Made by a program: the position numbers and the translations under genes. Under the pieces are notes generated by a model, which was not told where the DNA came from, ran no database searches, and was given only the letters and a program-made list of their open reading frames with translations. A DNA stretch of 64,000 nucleotides from a virus: positions 32,001-96,000 of the IMG/VR virus record IMGVR_UViG_3300021379_000006, one strand, 5' to 3'. Positions 1-7,100 of the stretch are shown in pieces. Each line of letters opens with the position of its first letter. The first letter of the stretch is position 1.

Positions 1-2
1 AT

Positions 3-1214
3 GATACAGTTGTTGATGTCTGCAAACAATCAGAAGCAAGACGTGGTGCTTGTGCTGCTTGGTTACCAGTAGAACATCCTGATATCATAGAGTTCTTAGA
101 TATTGGCAGTGAAGGAAATCCAATTCAAAATCTTCAATATGGTATTACAGTAACTGATGCCTGGTTGCAAGAAATGAAAGATGGAGACGCTGATAAACGT
201 AAGATATGGGCAAAGATCATTCAAAGACGTAATGAGTTTGGCTTCCCTTATATTATGTTTAAAGATAACTCTAATAACAACTCTCCTTACAAAGAGTTAG
301 GTCTAGAGATTACAGCATCAAACCTTTGTTCTGAAATACAACTTCCAACAGATAGTTATAACTCTTTTGTTTGTTGTCTTGGTTCTATGAACTTATTGCA
401 TTGGGATGAGATCAAAGAAACAGACGCAATTGAAACATACGTTCTGTTTCTTAACGCAGTAATGGATGAGTTTATTACTAAGTCTTCTACTTTACCCGGC
501 TTAAAAAGAGCTCATAGATTTGCAAGTCAACATAGAGCTATTGGCTTAGGTGTATTGGGATACCACTCATACTTTCAATCTAAGCTAATTGAGTTTGAAT
601 CTCTTGAAGCTAAGATGCTTAACAATCAGATTTTCAGTACACTAAAGAAAAGAAGTGAAGAAGCATCTCAATGGTTGCATCAATTCAAAGGATATCAATG
701 TTTAAGAGAAGGATTTGCTAATACAACATTGTTAGCCATTGCTCCTACAAAATCAAGTAGTTTTATTCATGGTCAAGTATCTATGGGTATTGAACCCATC
801 AAGTCTAATTACTTTATTAAAGATTTAGCTAAGAGTAAAACAGTATATAAGAATCCTTTCTTAGAAGCTGAACTTGAGAAGTATGATCTAAATACAGAAG
901 AAGTTTGGGAAGATATCTTAAAGAAAGATGGATCTGTTCAGCATTTAGATTTTCCAACCAAAGCTGTATTTAAATCTTTTATTGAGATTAGTCCAAAAGA
1001 ACTTGTTCTGCAGGCAGCTCAAAGACAAAAGTATATTGATCAGGCACAGTCATTAAATCTAATGATTCACCCTAGTGTATCTGCTAAAGATATAAATCAA
1101 TTATATCTGTACGCTCATGAAGAAGGTGTGAAGACTTTATACTATCAGTTTAGTCAAAGTTCTGCTCAAGCATTCTCTAGAAATATTCTTGAGTGTGCTA
1201 GTTGTGAAGGATAA
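3..1214 (+). CDS. nrdA: Ribonucleotide reductase class I large (alpha) subunit, 5' end outside window
   Basis: The frame is open from base 3 (DTVVDVCKQSEARRGACAAWL..HPDI.EFL). Motifs: SNLCSEI (thiyl-radical Cys), CCLGSMNL, RAIGLGVLG, LAIAPTKSSS, IDQAQSLNL, KTLYY, C-terminal CASC redox pair. Confidence 0.95.
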   Translation, partial: DTVVDVCKQSEARRGACAAWLPVEHPDIIEFLDIGSEGNPIQNLQYGITVTDAWLQEMKDGDADKRKIWAKIIQRRNEFGFPYIMFKDNSNNNSPYKELGLEITASNLCSEIQLPTDSYNSFVCCLGSMNLLHWDEIKETDAIETYVLFLNAVMDEFITKSSTLPGLKRAHRFASQHRAIGLGVLGYHSYFQSKLIEFESLEAKMLNNQIFSTLKKRSEEASQWLHQFKGYQCLREGFANTTLLAIAPTKSSSFIHGQVSMGIEPIKSNYFIKDLAKSKTVYKNPFLEAELEKYDLNTEEVWEDILKKDGSVQHLDFPTKAVFKSFIEISPKELVLQAAQRQKYIDQAQSLNLMIHPSVSAKDINQLYLYAHEEGVKTLYYQFSQSSAQAFSRNILECASCEG

Positions 1215-1250
1215 ATATATCATTAAATCTTAATGATGCACAAAACATCA

Positions 1251-1288
1251 AGGGGTCAGTCGCATAAGTGGCTGGCCCTTCTTGTTTT
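1251..1288 (+). terminator. Rho-independent terminator after nrdA
   Basis: AGGGGTCAGTCGC-ATAA-GTGGCTGGCCCTT forms a 13-bp stem with G-U pairs, followed by CTTGTTTT. Confidence 0.75.
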
Positions 1289-1300
1289 AGAGGTATAAAA

Positions 1301-1315
1301 TTTGTATATTATTAT
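1301..1315 (+). promoter_or_regulatory. Recurrent putative phage promoter motif TTGTATATTA
   Basis: TTTGTATATTATTAT lies directly upstream of the ATG at 1316. The same motif occurs upstream of several minus-strand genes. Confidence 0.55.
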
Positions 1316-1426
1316 ATGGATGCACACAAATTTTTTAAAACTGAAGAATTTAAATCTTTAAGTTGGCCTAAAAGAATATGGCTACGCTTACAGGTGGCAT
1401 TCTTTGAAACTATACAAATGTTATGA
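1316..1426 (+). CDS. Small 36-aa protein (not in ORF track)
   Basis: MDAHKFFKTEEFKSLSWPKRIWLRLQVAFFETIQML. It fills the gap after the promoter motif, and its TGA overlaps the next ATG (ATGA at 1423-1426). Confidence 0.65.
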   Translation: MDAHKFFKTEEFKSLSWPKRIWLRLQVAFFETIQML

Positions 1427-1611
1427 AAAAGATTACCTCTGTAAGAGCAGTATATTTATTAATGTCTCTTGTTTTATTAGCTGGTTTTTTATTTAAAAAC
1501 TGGTATGTAATATTATTTGTAGTTGTTATGCTACAAGTAGGTGTATGGACAAAATTCTGTCCTAGCAAATGGCTCTTTGAAAAACTAGGATTCCGTAAGA
1601 GTGATTTGTAA
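1423..1611 (+). CDS. Small two-TM membrane protein, YgaP/DUF2892-like
   Basis: Two hydrophobic helices followed by G-x-x-x-x-FCP, resembling the conserved CP motif of DUF2892/DUF4395 proteins. Confidence 0.6.
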   Translation: MKKITSVRAVYLLMSLVLLAGFLFKNWYVILFVVVMLQVGVWTKFCPSKWLFEKLGFRKSDL

Positions 1612-2516
1612 TGAGTGTATTGGATGGAATATCTATAAGAAGTAGAATATGTCTGCTCTGTGCTACACTGATTATGTTGACATTCTTTGTCTTCAAAACA
1701 TTAGTAGTATTTAGATATATACATCATAGCACATTCACTCATTACTTTGAGTGGTTATCTGTTATTGCTTTCATGCCTCCTTTCTTTGTTGTAGTTCGTG
1801 AGTTTCTGCAAAACAAAGAACAGATTAAAGATAGCCTATCTCAGAAGAACATATACCTAGAACATGCCGCAAAAATCATTAGACATGATATGCACAGTGG
1901 TATCAATACTTACTTACCGAGAGGGATCAAGTCCCTTAACCGCAGACTTACTGAAGAAAGTATTGAAGAACTCAGAATTAAAGCACCATTGCAGTTAATA
2001 AGAGATGGTCTACACCATGCTCAAAAAGTGTATGCTGGTGTATATGAGTTTACCAATCTGGTAAAAGAGAACGCTGTTTTAAACACAAAGCCTTGTAATC
2101 CTAAAGAGATTTTAGAAGATTATTTAAAGCTGACAGCATATAAAAATCAAGTAATAATTGATGACTCTGTACCAGAACGGCTGGAATTAAATGAAGCTTT
2201 GTTCTGTACAGCCATAGATAACTTAATCCGTAATGGATTAAAATATAATGATAGTCCTACTAAATGGGTTAAGATTTATCATGAAGGGTCGTACCACAAA
2301 GGATCTTTTATTGTAGTAGAAGATAATGGGCGTGGTATCACACAAGAAGAATTTATAGAATTAAGCAAGCCTTATTCCAGAAAAGAAGGTCAAAAAGAAC
2401 AAGGTACTGGATTAGGTCTAAACATATGTATTGAAATATTAAAAGAACACGGATTTAAAATATCCGCAGAAAAGAAAGAAAAAGAAACCGGAACCAAAAT
2501 AAAAATTGAATTATGA
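1611..2516 (+). CDS. Membrane sensor histidine kinase
   Basis: Two N-terminal TM helices; H-box IIRHDMHS (H92); N-box IDNLIRNGLKY; G1 VEDNGRGI; F-box SKPYSR; G2 GTGLGLNIC; terminal GTKIKIEL. Confidence 0.92.
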   Translation: MSVLDGISIRSRICLLCATLIMLTFFVFKTLVVFRYIHHSTFTHYFEWLSVIAFMPPFFVVVREFLQNKEQIKDSLSQKNIYLEHAAKIIRHDMHSGINTYLPRGIKSLNRRLTEESIEELRIKAPLQLIRDGLHHAQKVYAGVYEFTNLVKENAVLNTKPCNPKEILEDYLKLTAYKNQVIIDDSVPERLELNEALFCTAIDNLIRNGLKYNDSPTKWVKIYHEGSYHKGSFIVVEDNGRGITQEEFIELSKPYSRKEGQKEQGTGLGLNICIEILKEHGFKISAEKKEKETGTKIKIEL

Positions 2517-2950
2517 TTAATACACTTATGTTAATTGATGATGAGAACCTCTTCCACTTGGTGTTTGAAGATGCTTGCTCATTGTTGGATATGGCCCTAT
2601 CTATAGAAGCATTGGATAGCTCTGATGAAGCTGATGCTAAATTTAAAAAATGGTTTCCTGATGATCCAGATCATGAGAGACCAGAATGTGTATTTGTAGA
2701 CCTTAATATCATTGGATCTTCTTATGATGGCATTGAAATGATTCGTAAAGTAAATTATGAATATGGCAATGGATGTGTTATTGGTATTATATCAAGCTCA
2801 TCTGATACAGAAGAAATAGACAAAGCTAAAGCTGTTGGAGCGCAGTTTTGGATTATAAAGTCTGATGACATTGAACCACGTCTTGAAGAATTTATGAAAG
2901 ACTATGATGGTTATCTAAATAAGACCGCTCCGTTTAAAATATATAGGTGA
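2513..2950 (+). CDS. Single-domain response regulator (CheY/Rcp1-like receiver)
   Basis: Acidic pocket LIDDE (D9,D10), phospho-acceptor FVDLN (D63), DG, ISSS (S94), GAQFWIIK (K116). No output domain. Confidence 0.9.
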   Translation: MINTLMLIDDENLFHLVFEDACSLLDMALSIEALDSSDEADAKFKKWFPDDPDHERPECVFVDLNIIGSSYDGIEMIRKVNYEYGNGCVIGIISSSSDTEEIDKAKAVGAQFWIIKSDDIEPRLEEFMKDYDGYLNKTAPFKIYR

Positions 2951-3528
2951 TAGAGATTACAGAACATACAAGAAACATTTTATTAGAAGTTGCTAAGAAG
3001 AAAAAAATCTATGTAGAAGGCAGCTTTCTAAAACTATTACGTGCACCTAAAGATGATAAGGAGTTTGCAGAATATCTTGCTTTATGTAAAAAGAAAGATA
3101 CTGAAGCTCGTAAAAAAAGATTACAAGTAACCAAACAAGTTCAATCTCAAAATAAAGAATTAGAAGCAGCTGCTGCAGAGAATGAAAAGCTTATGGCTGA
3201 TCTCAAAGATGCATTAGAAGAATCTAATGAACTCAGAGCTCAAGCAGAACAAAGCATGGACAAAGCTTTACAAGATTTAGACTTGATGCAAAAACGTAGT
3301 CAGTTTGAACTTATAGGTACTATTGTAAGAGTAGCACTTGTTATAATTGTAGGTGTGGGTGTTCTTACTACTGTAATGTATGGCCTTGCTTTGGTGTCAG
3401 GCACTGATACTCAGATAATTGGAAGCACTTGGTCTAATATGTTTGGTATACTCTTAACTAATGCATTTTCTATTGTAGGTACTATAATGGGTGTAAAGTA
3501 TGCAACTGAAAAATCGGAGGAAAAATGA
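2947..3528 (+). CDS. Coiled-coil protein with two C-terminal TM helices (holin-like or membrane effector, unproven)
   Basis: GTG start overlaps the receiver stop. Charged N-terminus, long heptad coiled coil, two hydrophobic segments and a short charged tail. Confidence 0.6.
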   Translation: MIEITEHTRNILLEVAKKKKIYVEGSFLKLLRAPKDDKEFAEYLALCKKKDTEARKKRLQVTKQVQSQNKELEAAAAENEKLMADLKDALEESNELRAQAEQSMDKALQDLDLMQKRSQFELIGTIVRVALVIIVGVGVLTTVMYGLALVSGTDTQIIGSTWSNMFGILLTNAFSIVGTIMGVKYATEKSEEK

Positions 3529-4106
3529 AAAAGTATTTTAATAGTATACAATCTGTAGCAATAGCTGTATTGATTATTGTCATATTACTTATGAGATCTT
3601 GTGATAAGCAAGATCCTGTAGAGCCTATAATTATTACAAAGGTTGAAACCGTCTTTGATACAATCACTAAAGAAGTACCTGTTTACGTACCTAAATACGT
3701 ACAGAAAATAGAATACATTCATGACACTATTGTGGATAGCACGCCCATTGATACTGCATCTATACTAAAAGATTACTTTGCTACTTATGTATACCAAGAC
3801 AATCAGGAACTTGATAGTCTTACCTTAACTATAATTGATTCAGTATCACAAAATAAAATTTTTGCACGCACTATACAGTATGATCTTATCTATCCAACAA
3901 CTACAATCACAAAAGAAATCTATCTAAATCAAAGAGAGTTTTACTGGGGGATAGGAATGCAAGGTAGAACTGATCAACTTAACTATGTTGGTGGTGAATT
4001 ACTATATAGGAACAAAAAGAAACAAGCATATGGTCTTGGTGTAGGCATAAACCAAGATCTTCAGCCTGTAGTATCCGGAAAGCTTTACTGGAAAATAGGA
4101 AAGTAA
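3525..4106 (+). CDS. N-terminally anchored periplasmic/outer-membrane protein, possibly spanin-like
   Basis: N-terminal TM ending in LLMRSC (possible lipobox), DT-rich stalk, C-terminal amphipathic beta strands ending in LYWKIGK. Confidence 0.55.
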   Translation: MKKYFNSIQSVAIAVLIIVILLMRSCDKQDPVEPIIITKVETVFDTITKEVPVYVPKYVQKIEYIHDTIVDSTPIDTASILKDYFATYVYQDNQELDSLTLTIIDSVSQNKIFARTIQYDLIYPTTTITKEIYLNQREFYWGIGMQGRTDQLNYVGGELLYRNKKKQAYGLGVGINQDLQPVVSGKLYWKIGK

Positions 4107-4107
4107 C

Positions 4108-4171
4108 GGCTAGGTTGCTAGAGGTTGGGGCTTCAACCCACTTGGCTTATCACTCCCTCTACAACCCAGCT
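4108..4171. other. GC-rich structured intergenic element
   Basis: On the minus strand, GCTGGGTTG-TAGAGG pairs with CCTCTA-G-CAACCTAGC (15 bp, one bulge) and encloses an inner hairpin. Confidence 0.4.
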
Positions 4172-4172
4172 C

Positions 4173-4198
4173 AAACAAATCACCGTCTATAGGTGATT
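4173..4198 (-). terminator. Putative terminator of the leftward virion operon
   Basis: AATCACC-TATAGAC-GGTGATT hairpin followed by TGTTT on the minus strand, overlapping the stop codon. Confidence 0.5.
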
Positions 4199-7100
4199 AT
4201 TTAACATAAAACTCTCTTTCTTGATCAAAGTTCTGCCATCTCTGTATTGTGTACAAGAAAGGTAATACGTCATTCCATTCTTTAGACATTTTAAGATCGC
4301 CTTTTCTTTTACCTCTTTGATAGACAACCTCTTTATTTTTTCTAAACTCTTTATCATCTAAGAACAAACCATATATCGCAGTTTGTCCTGTTGAATATAC
4401 AGCTTCTGAGAACTGACCAAGAACGTTAGCTGATGCAATTGGATTCTTAATTAATTGATAAGCCTGTGGCCAACCAACAACTGGCCAGAAAGCATAAAGT
4501 TCTTTTGATGCTCTATCTGCATTGTACTTTAAAAGGTTTTTCAATCTCTTTTCAATTTCACCATCATCATCATCGGTTGCAAGTACACCACCTAAGAGCT
4601 CAGTTAATGCCCATATAGTTAATACTAAACCAATTTCTCCCATTGTAGTATAAGCACCTGTAATTTTATTTTTGATACGTTGCTCCACGTGACCATAGTT
4701 TATACCCTCTTCTCTTGCAAAATCTTCTGCAAGTTTTTCAGCATAAACCTTATTTAAGTTTTTGATATCTGATAGATTTTTAAACGCAAACGCAAAGAAA
4801 CTGGTAAAAGATCTATAACGTCCCTCTACCCAACCTAAGTTCTCATCGTATTGCTCTCTTCTCATTCTAGATTTGATTGAAGGAGCAACCCATTTTTTAA
4901 ACTGTACGGCAAGCTTACCAAGAAAATGTGATTGCATAACCATTCTATCTGCTCGTGCATAGCTACCATGAATTCTTTTATTAACCTCTCTAATTTGATT
5001 GCGTAGCTTATATCTATATTGATCATTCCACTCAACCTCATTACCATTCATATCATAGATTTTATATTTTGGATCTATGACAATTGTTTGATTTTTACTG
5101 TCCCATGTAGATGCTTCATAAAGGTTTACTTCATTTCCGTTTTCATCCACTGCTTTATGTGAGGCTACGATTGCCATACCAATTTTAGTTTGAACATTAT
5201 ATTCAAAACTATCATTAAGCAAATAGAACCAGCTACCAGCCTTTTGAAAGTAGCTATCTTGATCCGTTTCTCTGATCTCTGTTTTGCTATCCATCATACG
5301 GAGTACATCAACCCAACCCTCCCATTTAGTCATGGGTTTTTTAGGATCATAGTAACCTTTCTTACCATCAAGTATATACCCAGTTCTTCTAACTGATTTT
5401 GCTAGCACCTGCTCAACATTAAATTCTTTTTTCATCTGAAGGTATGCTCTCCTTTTAAAGAACCTACCACCCATGACTTCAATTGTGTTATTTAATAAAC
5501 CAATTGTAAGGTTATTAATGTTACCCAAAGGGTTTGTTGCTACATATGCAAAGGAAGAGTAACCCATTAATAGACCAGACATTTTTTCTAATGCAGTCTG
5601 AGTAAGATTTTCATTGTCATAGAAAACCATTCTAGCCCATTTTTTTATTCTCTTTTGAATATTGCTTTCAAGATCGTTTTCTCTATTACCAACAGGAACC
5701 ATCTTTCTAACCTTACTTGCACCAGAAACAATTGCATCTCCCACAACGCTAACAACATTATCTGATTTTGCTTCTGGAGCAAGAACTTCTCTTTTATCAG
5801 ACACCTTAATAAAAGAAGTAACAATATCTTCAATTGTAGACATGACTTCAAAGTTTTCAGCCATCGTATTAAACTTAAGAAGACTTGTTCCAAGATCAGT
5901 GTTTAGTGTTTCTCTTGTAGGTTTTTTTCTTAGTCTTTTTTCCTCTACATCTAAAATATCCATCTTATTTCTATATTCTGTTTTAGATATAGCTTTAGAA
6001 TCTAATCTGGTTTTTAGTAAAGTTCTCTTCTCTTCAATCTTTTCAAGATCTTTTTCTGTAGCTAAATTGCCTGTGTAATAAATAGGAAGAGTATTTACAA
6101 TTTCACCTTTCTCATTTACCACAACTCTTCTATAACTACCTGTTTCCTTAAAGAAGTCACCAACATTTCTCTTCATCTTAGCAAACATCTTAGCTACAAC
6201 AGGACCTTCTCTTTTGATTTTGTTTGCAAGAATTGTTGGTATTCTACCAGCCATTTGTTCCATTACATTAGGTGGAAGTTTTTTAGTTAGCTCCTCCATT
6301 GTCTCAACATAGAATTGATAGAACTCTCTTCTTGCAATAGATAACTCATCTTCTACTGCAGGATTCATTATAGCATCATACTTTTCATTAAGCATGCTGA
6401 CCTTTTTACCATTTACAGTAGCCTGAGCTTTTGCATATCTATATTTATTGTGGGGTACCCAAATTTGACCTGGTGATAAAGTTCCTGTAGGTTCACCATT
6501 TTTCTTATCCATAAAGAAAGTTTCTTTGTACTCACCATAGGTTTGTCTAAACTTTCTCCAAGATTTGGCATCTACAGATCGTTTCTTTTTCCAAATAACA
6601 AAACCACTTGCTGTTATTTCAGGTCTTTCATACTTTGCTCTTAAAGTTTTAAACTCTTCTGTGTATGCATGATAATTTCCATCTACAATATCACCTTCGC
6701 TAGTACCTCTCTCTGCTCTCCAGAATCTAGCATTTTCTTGTTTTAGCTCATAAAGCTTCTTATTATATGCTAACTCTTCTGGCGTAGCTTCATCCTCATT
6801 GAACTTTTCAATGTATTCCATTCTATTACCATCTTCATCAAACAGTAAGTCTCTAAGTTCTTTGATCTTATTATAGTATTGAGGACCCAATCTCTGAACA
6901 ATATATCCAGTTGGTAAACCAGCCTCATCAAACTCTAACATAAAGTTATAAAGATCTTCCGGTTTTGTACTTGGATCTAACTTAGCAAGCTTACCAGCAA
7001 CAGCTCTAATTTTATTTTCTCTTGCTTGTGCTTTATCTAAGTATTCTTGCTCTTTAGCTTTATATATCTTATCTAATACAGCAAGTAGGGTGTCTCTATT

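Follow-up and report, generated by a model that had tools for sequence, protein, structure and literature searches.

What would a phage control with a histidine kinase and a receiver of its own? The question is raised by an operon of six genes in the window analysed here, a stretch of 64,000 nucleotides that covers bases 32001-96000 of the 117,829-bp virus record IMGVR_UViG_3300021379_000006, from an uncultured marine phage. The operon encodes a 36-residue peptide (p36), a 62-residue membrane protein (p62), a membrane histidine kinase, a stand-alone receiver, a coiled-coil protein with two transmembrane (TM) helices that we call the hairpin protein, and the product of a sixth gene. Judged from sequence, the set would be two-component signalling with a new output family. 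The best reading of its output is a membrane protein and not DNA binding. We give a probability of about 0.5 to the reading as a whole, namely that a phage-owned phosphorelay gates the membrane hairpin and that the hairpin controls lysis timing.

All six open reading frames (ORFs) and all five stop/start overlaps reported in the initial annotation are found at their places on the plus strand. p36 (1316..1426) is joined to p62 (1423..1611) by ATGA at 1423, and p62 to the kinase (1611..2516) by TAATG at 1609. The kinase is joined to the receiver (2513..2950) by ATGA at 2513. The hairpin protein (2947..3528) has a GTG start within GTGA at 2947, and the sixth gene (3525..4106) begins in ATGA at 3525. 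These overlaps were read directly. Core genes are tightly packed in related loci as well; there, ORF starts are those of the longest ORF and counts of stop/start overlaps may be too high.

The kinase is a protein of 301 residues with two TM helices, a putative DHp helix that carries H92, and an ATPase domain. Pfam HATPase_c matches it with 59 bits against a cut-off of 26.4 (E 7.5e-16), while for HisKA nothing is reported at E up to 1. The H-box pattern of histidine kinases is H-E/D-L-R/H-T/S-P/G, which the stretch around H92 fits. This histidine lies within the invariant YLEHAAKIIRHDMHSGINTY (RHDMHSGIN) and is itself invariant in 15/15 sequences; because Pfam HisKA reports no DHp part, the H-box assignment rests on the pattern and the invariance. 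The N, G1, F and G2 positions (N204, N208, D238, G240, G242, F248, G265, G267 and G269) are likewise invariant in 15/15. A profile of the 15 relatives matches HK853 (3dge) at 1.8e-13 in an alignment that spans DHp helix 2 and the catalytic domain only.

The receiver has 145 residues and D63 as its putative phospho-acceptor. D9, D10, D63, S94 and K116 are invariant in 23/23 sequences, so that the catalytic residues called intact in the initial annotation, in kinase and receiver alike, are also fixed among relatives. Its own Pfam PF00072 score (27.3 bits) falls under the cut-off of 30.2, and PF00072 stands in the precomputed column for the listed relatives. The AlphaFold2 model (predicted local distance difference test score, pLDDT, 72) has a (beta-alpha)5 fold. 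At E<=1e-3 it finds 355 solved chains, and the rows shown are without exception response regulators or receiver domains. The top solved folds are the single-domain phytochrome-associated regulators 4zyl (E 3.9e-7) and 1k68. A sequence search of the PDB with the receiver profile gave a single match, a designed TIM barrel, which was taken as spurious. Within the set, conservation is highest in the receiver (mean column identity 88% over 23 sequences), and its ratio of nonsynonymous to synonymous substitution rates (dN/dS, 0.03-0.08) makes it the most constrained of the five core genes. The receiver family abounds in marine and freshwater data and comprises 3842 clusters at 90% identity in public data.

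The set is not peculiar to one contig. A search with the kinase gave 49 viral loci at 49-85% identity, and the core of p36, p62, kinase, receiver and hairpin protein recurs, in the same order, in 49 viral and 80 metagenome contigs; this is the outcome of the synteny search that had been proposed for viral and metagenome contigs. By tblastn, the receiver and the hairpin protein are present in 47/49 viral loci (the other two are cut by a contig edge), p62 in 45/49 and p36 in 39/49. All five core genes are under purifying selection. Synonymous divergence (dS) from the closest relative is 0.5-1.4, near saturation, and dN/dS for kinase, receiver and hairpin protein is 0.03-0.24. The guanine-plus-cytosine content of the operon, 0.33-0.34, is the same as that of its flanks. 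Contigs of other sequencing runs cross the gene junctions, and one piece (X2), which covers the receiver/hairpin junction, has 0 differences over 2642-3020. In INPHARED we found nothing related to the DNA of the region, to the receiver or to the hairpin protein, and three weak matches to the ATPase domain of the kinase; therefore no cultured phage with the module was found. We are highly confident that the two-component set is real. In support of the initial annotation, it is a genuine, conserved phage set with a receiver that lacks an output domain.

A receiver that lacks an output domain works through contact with other proteins, and the hairpin protein is the best candidate for the output here. 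This protein of 193 residues has a long cytoplasmic part, two TM helices and a charged tail, KYATEKSEEK. From the N-terminus it consists of a head of about 75 residues and a coiled coil that runs on into TM1; a short outer loop then leads to a near-invariant TM2. In the AlphaFold2 model (pLDDT 81) a small N-terminal head is followed by a helix (38-151) that is the coiled coil running into TM1, a tight turn, and a second helix (156-192). Mean column identity is 56%, with W162, S163, N164, G167-N172, F174-I176 and G178-G182 invariant. No Pfam family matches at E<=0.01. In the Protein Atlas, a feature search leads to virus-only clusters with an uninformative automatic name, and the structure matches above TM 0.5 are all virus-only. 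Two new domains can be defined in this protein, a receiver-associated head and a 2-TM tail, and neither is covered by a Pfam model or a solved fold.

The two domains are found apart from each other. A profile of the hairpin protein searched against 1.84 billion representatives gave 249 matches. Among these proteins the 2-TM tail occurs C-terminal to GAF (P0152) or to PAS-PAS (P0167), and the head occurs N-terminal to HisKA plus HATPase kinases that have no tail (P0246, P0261, P0266 and P0270). The head-kinase protein P0246 was found in 0/123 candidate viral stretches, and P0167 was matched in INPHARED through its PAS part only. A further protein from a metagenome, P0192 (348 residues), has the head and coiled coil running into an FecCD-type permease (7e-49); it is either a true fusion or a mis-assembled or mis-called gene. 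The PAS-PAS-hairpin gene, which we call one-component, occurs in 253 viral stretches, and 80 of these loci were kept. Homologues of the kinase, the receiver, p62 and p36 occur in 0/80 of the kept loci. A ribonucleotide reductase gene is present in 7/80, directly 5' of the hairpin gene where mapped (L063, L084), and this is the slot that the operon takes in the window. The head, for its part, keeps company with the receiver: in 78/80 more distant metagenome loci, which were retrieved through the head, the receiver gene lies directly 5' of the head, and the remaining two have no upstream DNA.

The simplest reading of these arrangements is that the head would receive the receiver's signal and that the tail would be an effector equally drivable by a fused sensor. 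We hold it probable that the hairpin protein is the output of the two-component set. The coiled-coil 2-TM protein had been put forward as the target of the receiver, and the domain swaps together with the strict co-occurrence of receiver and head leave it as the best candidate. Predicted as a complex, the receiver and residues 1-118 of the hairpin protein scored 0.09, below the mark of 0.32, which bears neither way on binding.

What the hairpin might act on is suggested by the genes around the module. The ORFs of 129 related loci and of the window's own region were clustered and then scanned with Pfam and PHROGs. A PF05105 holin occurs near the module (20/20 members match, best 3.5e-8), and in 11 loci its gene lies inside the module, between p36 and p62. 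The hydrolases that flank the module are GH19, Amidase_2, Phage_lysozyme, Peptidase_M15_3 and PG_binding_1. Recurrent neighbours also include small 2-TM proteins of holin-like layout without a family match. That the linkage persists with five enzyme types and in several gene orders speaks for function over inherited synteny. Directly 5' of the module, three loci (L001:4984-5451, L007, L009) encode a small 2-TM protein and a DUF5675 protein (1.2e-26; a Tlde1-like match is weak), and the latter may be their wall-degrading enzyme. These relatives have the loop type of the window kinase.

A hydrolase or PF05105 holin lies within 3 kb in 24/43 two-component loci (30/43 counting DUF5675) and in 65/80 one-component loci, against a random-gene expectation of about 7-10% in a 100-kb genome, which is a rough estimate and not a computed control; the counts come from related, non-independent contigs with no matched control gene. 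This last point weighs against lysis control, and so do several others. The window phage and its closest relatives (L001-L010, L002, L024) have no Pfam-recognised hydrolase or PF05105 holin within about 6 kb on each side of the module, and PF05105 is absent from the whole phage genome. The sole recognisable endolysin of the genome, an amidase-type protein of 305 residues, is encoded at genome 107246-108163, 72 kb from the operon. The hairpin protein itself matches no holin family in Pfam or PHROGs, and its model matches no solved fold at E<=0.001 in a Foldseek search against solved structures. The receiver is also far more conserved than the hairpin protein (88% against 56%), which could mean that its main partner is elsewhere, for example a host protein. 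The link to lysis made in the initial annotation is thus upheld by the gene neighbourhood of relatives but not by the window phage, where neither an endolysin nor a PF05105 holin is near the operon. Weighing both sides, we put control of lysis by the module at slightly better than even. The module probably has a role in lysis timing, and this role is less direct in the window phage than in its relatives. In full-text searches of the literature we found no lysis cassette described as containing a phage kinase-receiver pair; in the accessible part of PMC12596118, "two-component" refers to endolysin plus holin only.

The endolysin lies past the window's right end (75246-76163 in window numbering) and matches PHROG endolysin and amidase families. 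The representative of its cluster carries PG_binding_1 plus Amidase_2. No hydrophobic segments were found in the endolysin or its immediate neighbours, and no membrane protein lies beside it. An ORF for a beta-rich protein of 160 residues with a signal peptide lies 0.4 kb 5' of the endolysin.

The proposed mechanism runs as follows. The kinase, with its two membrane helices and almost no outer loop, would read a membrane or cytoplasmic cue. It would autophosphorylate on H92 and hand the phosphate to D63 of the receiver. The phosphorylated receiver would then dock on the N-terminal head of the hairpin protein, and the signal would pass along the long coiled coil to the two-helix membrane hairpin. 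The hairpin could in turn alter the manner or the moment of inner-membrane permeabilisation for lysis, either by restraining or triggering a holin or by itself forming a small depolarising pore. Lysis timing sets burst size and phage fitness, and its known controls are clocks intrinsic to the holin and a small number of antiholins. If the proposal is true, a phage-owned phosphorelay would add a new level of decision-making to lytic infection, in which swappable inputs feed one invariant receiver and one invariant membrane hairpin.

A more specific form of this proposal, which we consider possible but clearly less likely than not, is that the hairpin is a phosphorylation-gated, pinholin-like trigger whose TM2 would oligomerise through a small-residue face into a small depolarising pore. 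The receiver, or a fused PAS or GAF sensor in sister phages, would release the coiled coil, and the loss of membrane potential would fire whichever holin the phage carries. Were this so, the module would be a portable, sensor-swappable lysis clock, and the mosaicism of the kinase sensor would amount to phages trading the cue for bursting the host.

Lysis control has to be weighed against other uses of the same proteins. The set could serve host take-over, in which case the partner of the receiver would be a conserved host protein or kinase (as a phosphate sink or by binding to a host machine), the hairpin protein would be a mere scaffold or anchor, and host physiology would be tuned instead of lysis. 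This is what the constraint on the receiver, well above that on the kinase or the hairpin protein, might lead one to expect, and the operon of the window phage does follow nucleotide-metabolism genes, far from the endolysin. A gene for a PhoH-like ATPase (9.4e-65) lies 3' of the hairpin gene in three relatives (L001:8055-8738, also L007 and L009), and phage-borne PhoB-type regulators are described as auxiliary genes in the accessible part of one source (PMC8228385); both count in the same direction. Host take-over leaves unexplained, however, why phages without the receiver (present in 0/80) keep the 2-TM tail behind PAS or GAF, why the head follows the receiver in 78/80 loci, and why the module is recurrently placed among five endolysin types and a holin. 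We regard it as unlikely. A gated hairpin could also block the entry of DNA from later phages or change transport, apart from lysis. Its membrane location, sensor input and conserved polar TM2 would suit any regulated membrane effector, and T4 lysis inhibition is itself described, in the accessible parts of two sources, as an answer to superinfection (PMC8385771, PMC11413866). PADLOC reports zero families for 5/6 proteins, and for the hairpin protein two weak coiled-coil matches (2e-4, 8e-3). Superinfection exclusion, or another membrane function of this kind, offers no reason for the linkage to endolysins and holins, and is distinctly unlikely.

Less probable still is an arrangement in which the hairpin protein is an input, that is an accessory membrane regulator of the kinase, and the receiver acts elsewhere. 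LiaF regulates LiaS and is the model for this arrangement, which would fit a protein that lies in the membrane as the kinase does and shares an operon with it. It does not fit the 80/80 one-component loci, where the tail has its own PAS or GAF sensor and no kinase, nor the fusion of the head to soluble kinases without the tail, nor the fact that the hairpin gene always comes after the receiver and never before the kinase. The initial annotation had named a recent, non-conserved host fragment or an assembly chimera as what would refute its reading. One cellular homologue does exist, on a Bacteroidetes genome contig (L135, genome G001) whose kinase is 46%, receiver 66% and head 44% identical (the last over 98 residues). 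A head profile, however, found this query genome alone among Bacteroidota, as 1/401 phylum-sampled and 1/301 order-sampled genomes. The gene order is common to the 49 viral loci and the 80 from metagenomes, synonymous sites approach saturation, and composition is that of the flanks. Recurrence, purifying selection, flank-like composition and the independent contigs across the junctions therefore rule out a host fragment or chimera, whose probability we put close to nil. Gating of the membrane hairpin by a phage-owned phosphorelay, with an effect on lysis timing, remains our preferred reading.

Under that reading the cue itself seems to vary. Hydropathy places the TM segments of the kinase at 15-33 and 48-66; the outer loop between them, at some 14 residues, is under the limit of about 25 used for intramembrane-sensing kinases. 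Over residues 1-66, identity is 98% with the kinase of L001 and 50% with that of L002, whereas over residues 67-301 it is 78% with L001 and 91% with L002. p62 is 61% identical to its L001 and 89% to its L002 counterpart, and so tracks the catalytic and not the membrane part of the kinase. By these identities the kinase is a mosaic whose membrane sensor part has been swapped independently of p62, which does not favour p62 as a co-evolving partner of the kinase. The sensor types among relatives include two allelic minimal membrane forms, a cytoplasmic PAS insert, GAF and a large N-terminal domain. The minimal forms have either a His-rich loop with CxxC, as in the window, or a Cys/Pro/acidic loop. 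This sensor variation, together with the mosaicism of the kinase, indicates that the cue is exchangeable. In two freshwater relatives (L144:2525-4563, L171:2728-4568) the kinase has 707 residues, and its N-terminal stretch looks, by eye, like the GAF part of P0152. Two extra genes separate kinase and receiver in these loci, one for a signal-peptide or lipoprotein-like protein of 195-198 residues and the other for a protein of 427-481 residues with a signal peptide. In its N-terminal part, the L144 protein is similar to the domain with which the L046 kinase begins.

The genome around the operon is that of a phage. The record encodes a major head protein, a portal, a large terminase and a DNA polymerase, and the database relatives of the portal are crAss-like phages at 23-35% identity. 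No PF00589 tyrosine integrase was found in the whole phage genome. Three adjacent tRNA genes (Arg-TCT, Leu-TAA and Met-CAT) lie at genome 115732-115977 (L054:10732-10977). The operon is preceded by nucleotide-metabolism genes, and its 5' neighbour is the end of the gene for the ribonucleotide reductase large subunit. Its 3' neighbour is a convergent gene of 1887 codons on the opposite strand. The 90-nucleotide gap between the sixth gene and this neighbour (4107-4196) holds an inverted repeat, AATCACC...GGTGATT, seen by eye. It is a possible two-way terminator and is absent from the list of the hairpin scan.

Upstream of the operon, the terminator-like hairpin and the 12-nucleotide motif noted earlier are both in place on the plus strand. 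The stem-loop at 1251-1280 has 13 pairs, of which 7 are G-C, and a loop of 4, followed by CTTGTTTTAG; with its T-run it extends over 1251..1290 and would close the ribonucleotide reductase gene. The promoter-like 12-mer TTTGTATATTAT (1301..1312) ends 3 nucleotides 5' of the p36 ATG. This layout of hairpin plus motif is retained in L002 and L024 only, the two closest relatives. With at most one mismatch, the 12-mer has 7 matches in the window against 2.25 expected, and 7 was reached in 1/100 shuffles. The 117.8-kb genome has 3 exact copies and 11 with at most one mismatch; of these 11, 7 are intergenic and 6 sit 9-110 nucleotides 5' of the start of a same-strand ORF. The other two exact copies precede a 619-residue ORF and a small membrane-protein operon (genome 30226-30237). 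Late expression of the signalling operon, as put forward in the initial annotation, has the promoter-like motif in common as its sole basis. Over the operon, the contig pieces of an RNA run (X24) compared with positions 1-6000 are short, low in depth and differ at many positions, and they bear neither way on transcription.

Small membrane proteins are few in the genome and lie mostly at 29-36 kb. Besides those of the signalling operon they are a TM-plus-coiled-coil protein and a small 2-TM protein whose tail is charged. These last two belong to the small membrane-protein operon, which is on the minus strand at genome 29286-30237 (window -2714 to -1763), 4 kb from the signalling operon, with the exact 12-mer ahead of it. 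It encodes a 102-residue TM-plus-coiled-coil protein, an 82-residue basic protein and the small 2-TM protein, which has 81 residues from the start used by its L002 homologue and whose cluster has members in 23 related loci. The layout of this protein is holin-like, and the three genes are a candidate holin or spanin-like set. The exact 12-mer ahead of both operons counts in favour of our reading; it hints at co-regulation of this operon with the signalling operon, and is not evidence of timing.

Two small proteins open the module. p36 is an amphipathic peptide with the conserved pattern EFK..L....R...R...A. It is the ATG 1316 form of a 52-residue ORF that opens at GTG 1268, and its L002 and L024 relatives start at ATG. 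The proportion of nonsynonymous differences (pN) is below that of synonymous ones (pS) against 5/5 relatives, and dN/dS is 0.17-0.44 where dS is unsaturated. The p36 ATG overlaps the stop of the preceding ORF in L013, L032 and L041, and the overlapping ORF is an amidase endolysin in L041 and in L014 (identical to L013 there). p62 has two TM segments by hydropathy (6-24 and 28-46) and a basic C-terminal tail with an invariant CPS.W (C46, P47, S48 and W50). It had been described as DUF2892-like. Its own score against PF11127 (YgaP-like_TM/DUF2892), 14 bits, is below the cut-off of 25.3, but PF11127 matches 11/16 of its relatives at E<=0.1 (best 2.3e-5), so the description stands in the weaker form that p62 may at most be a distant relative of that family.

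The sixth gene had been proposed as an effector. Its product of 193 residues is signal-anchored or lipoprotein-like and beta-rich, with one N-terminal hydrophobic segment (5-23). The gene adjoins the module in 2/49 viral loci (L002, L024), and is therefore no conserved effector; it is near the PAS-hairpin gene in 3/80 one-component loci. Although probably co-transcribed in the window, it is outside the conserved module. The protein falls into 455 clusters, and among the 120 listed none has a Pfam domain or a name beyond "hypothetical protein". It has no similarity to the 159-residue signal-peptide beta protein near the endolysin.

Related loci hold further genes beside the core. A Cys-rich protein of 49-56 residues with a signal- or lipoprotein-like N-terminus and a conserved YETGY...GNPDN.YLD...CGD is encoded either between receiver and hairpin gene or upstream of the module (L001:7344-7493, L003:7334-7495, L004:7334-7504), and just 5' of the peptide gene in L011, L015 and L016. 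It is possibly a spanin-like piece of the outer membrane. In 12 loci (for example L013:5097-6287) the hairpin gene is followed by the gene for a protein of about 397 residues, which has hydrophobic N-terminal stretches and weak EF-hand matches below Pfam cut-offs.

How does the module compare with systems that are already known? Single-domain receivers such as CheY work by protein contact. The window's stand-alone receiver of about 145 residues, with its C-terminal extension, resembles CheY and the phytochrome-associated regulators RPA3017, RcpA, Rcp1 and AtBRR in being a single domain. It differs from them in sequence (14-22% identity) and in its proposed partner, a new domain that forms the head of a membrane hairpin protein. 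In the Bacteroidetes triplet of L135, kinase / receiver / head-kinase, the proteins are true homologues and their order is the same; there the head is fused to a second histidine kinase and not to the 2-TM tail, and p36 and p62 are missing. The intramembrane-sensing kinases BceS and LiaS have two TM helices, a short outer loop and small membrane proteins encoded alongside. The window kinase is like them in its two helices, its loop of about 14 residues and its adjacent small membrane proteins. Unlike them, the module has no ABC transporter or LiaF homologue, and what is found among its relatives instead is a PAS or GAF insert or a large N-terminal domain. Class II holins or pinholins such as S21 68 span the membrane with two helices, have small residues along one face of TM2 and end in a C-terminal tail that is short and charged. 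The hairpin protein shares these features, its small-residue face being G167, T171, S175, G178 and G182. It is unlike S21 68 in that a cytoplasmic head and coiled coil of about 120 residues come first, and in that relatives have separate holin candidates.

The closest functional analogue is the lysis inhibition of phage T4, which acts through holin T and the antiholins RI and RIII (PMC8385771, PMC11413866). As far as the accessible parts of these sources describe it, a phage-encoded sensory input there sets or delays holin lysis through small membrane-acting proteins, as is proposed here; unlike the proposal, it works by direct periplasmic protein binding with no phosphorelay, and its cue is superinfection. 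The T4 lysis-inhibition proteins have no sequence or fold similarity to any protein of the operon. In Staphylococcus and Bacillus, LytSR is a two-component system tied to the state of the membrane that controls the holin-like and antiholin-like proteins LrgAB and CidAB. This is the closest cellular concept. LytSR is cellular and transcriptional and works through a DNA-binding LytTR regulator, whereas the receiver of the window phage has no DNA-binding domain and would exert its control from protein to protein.

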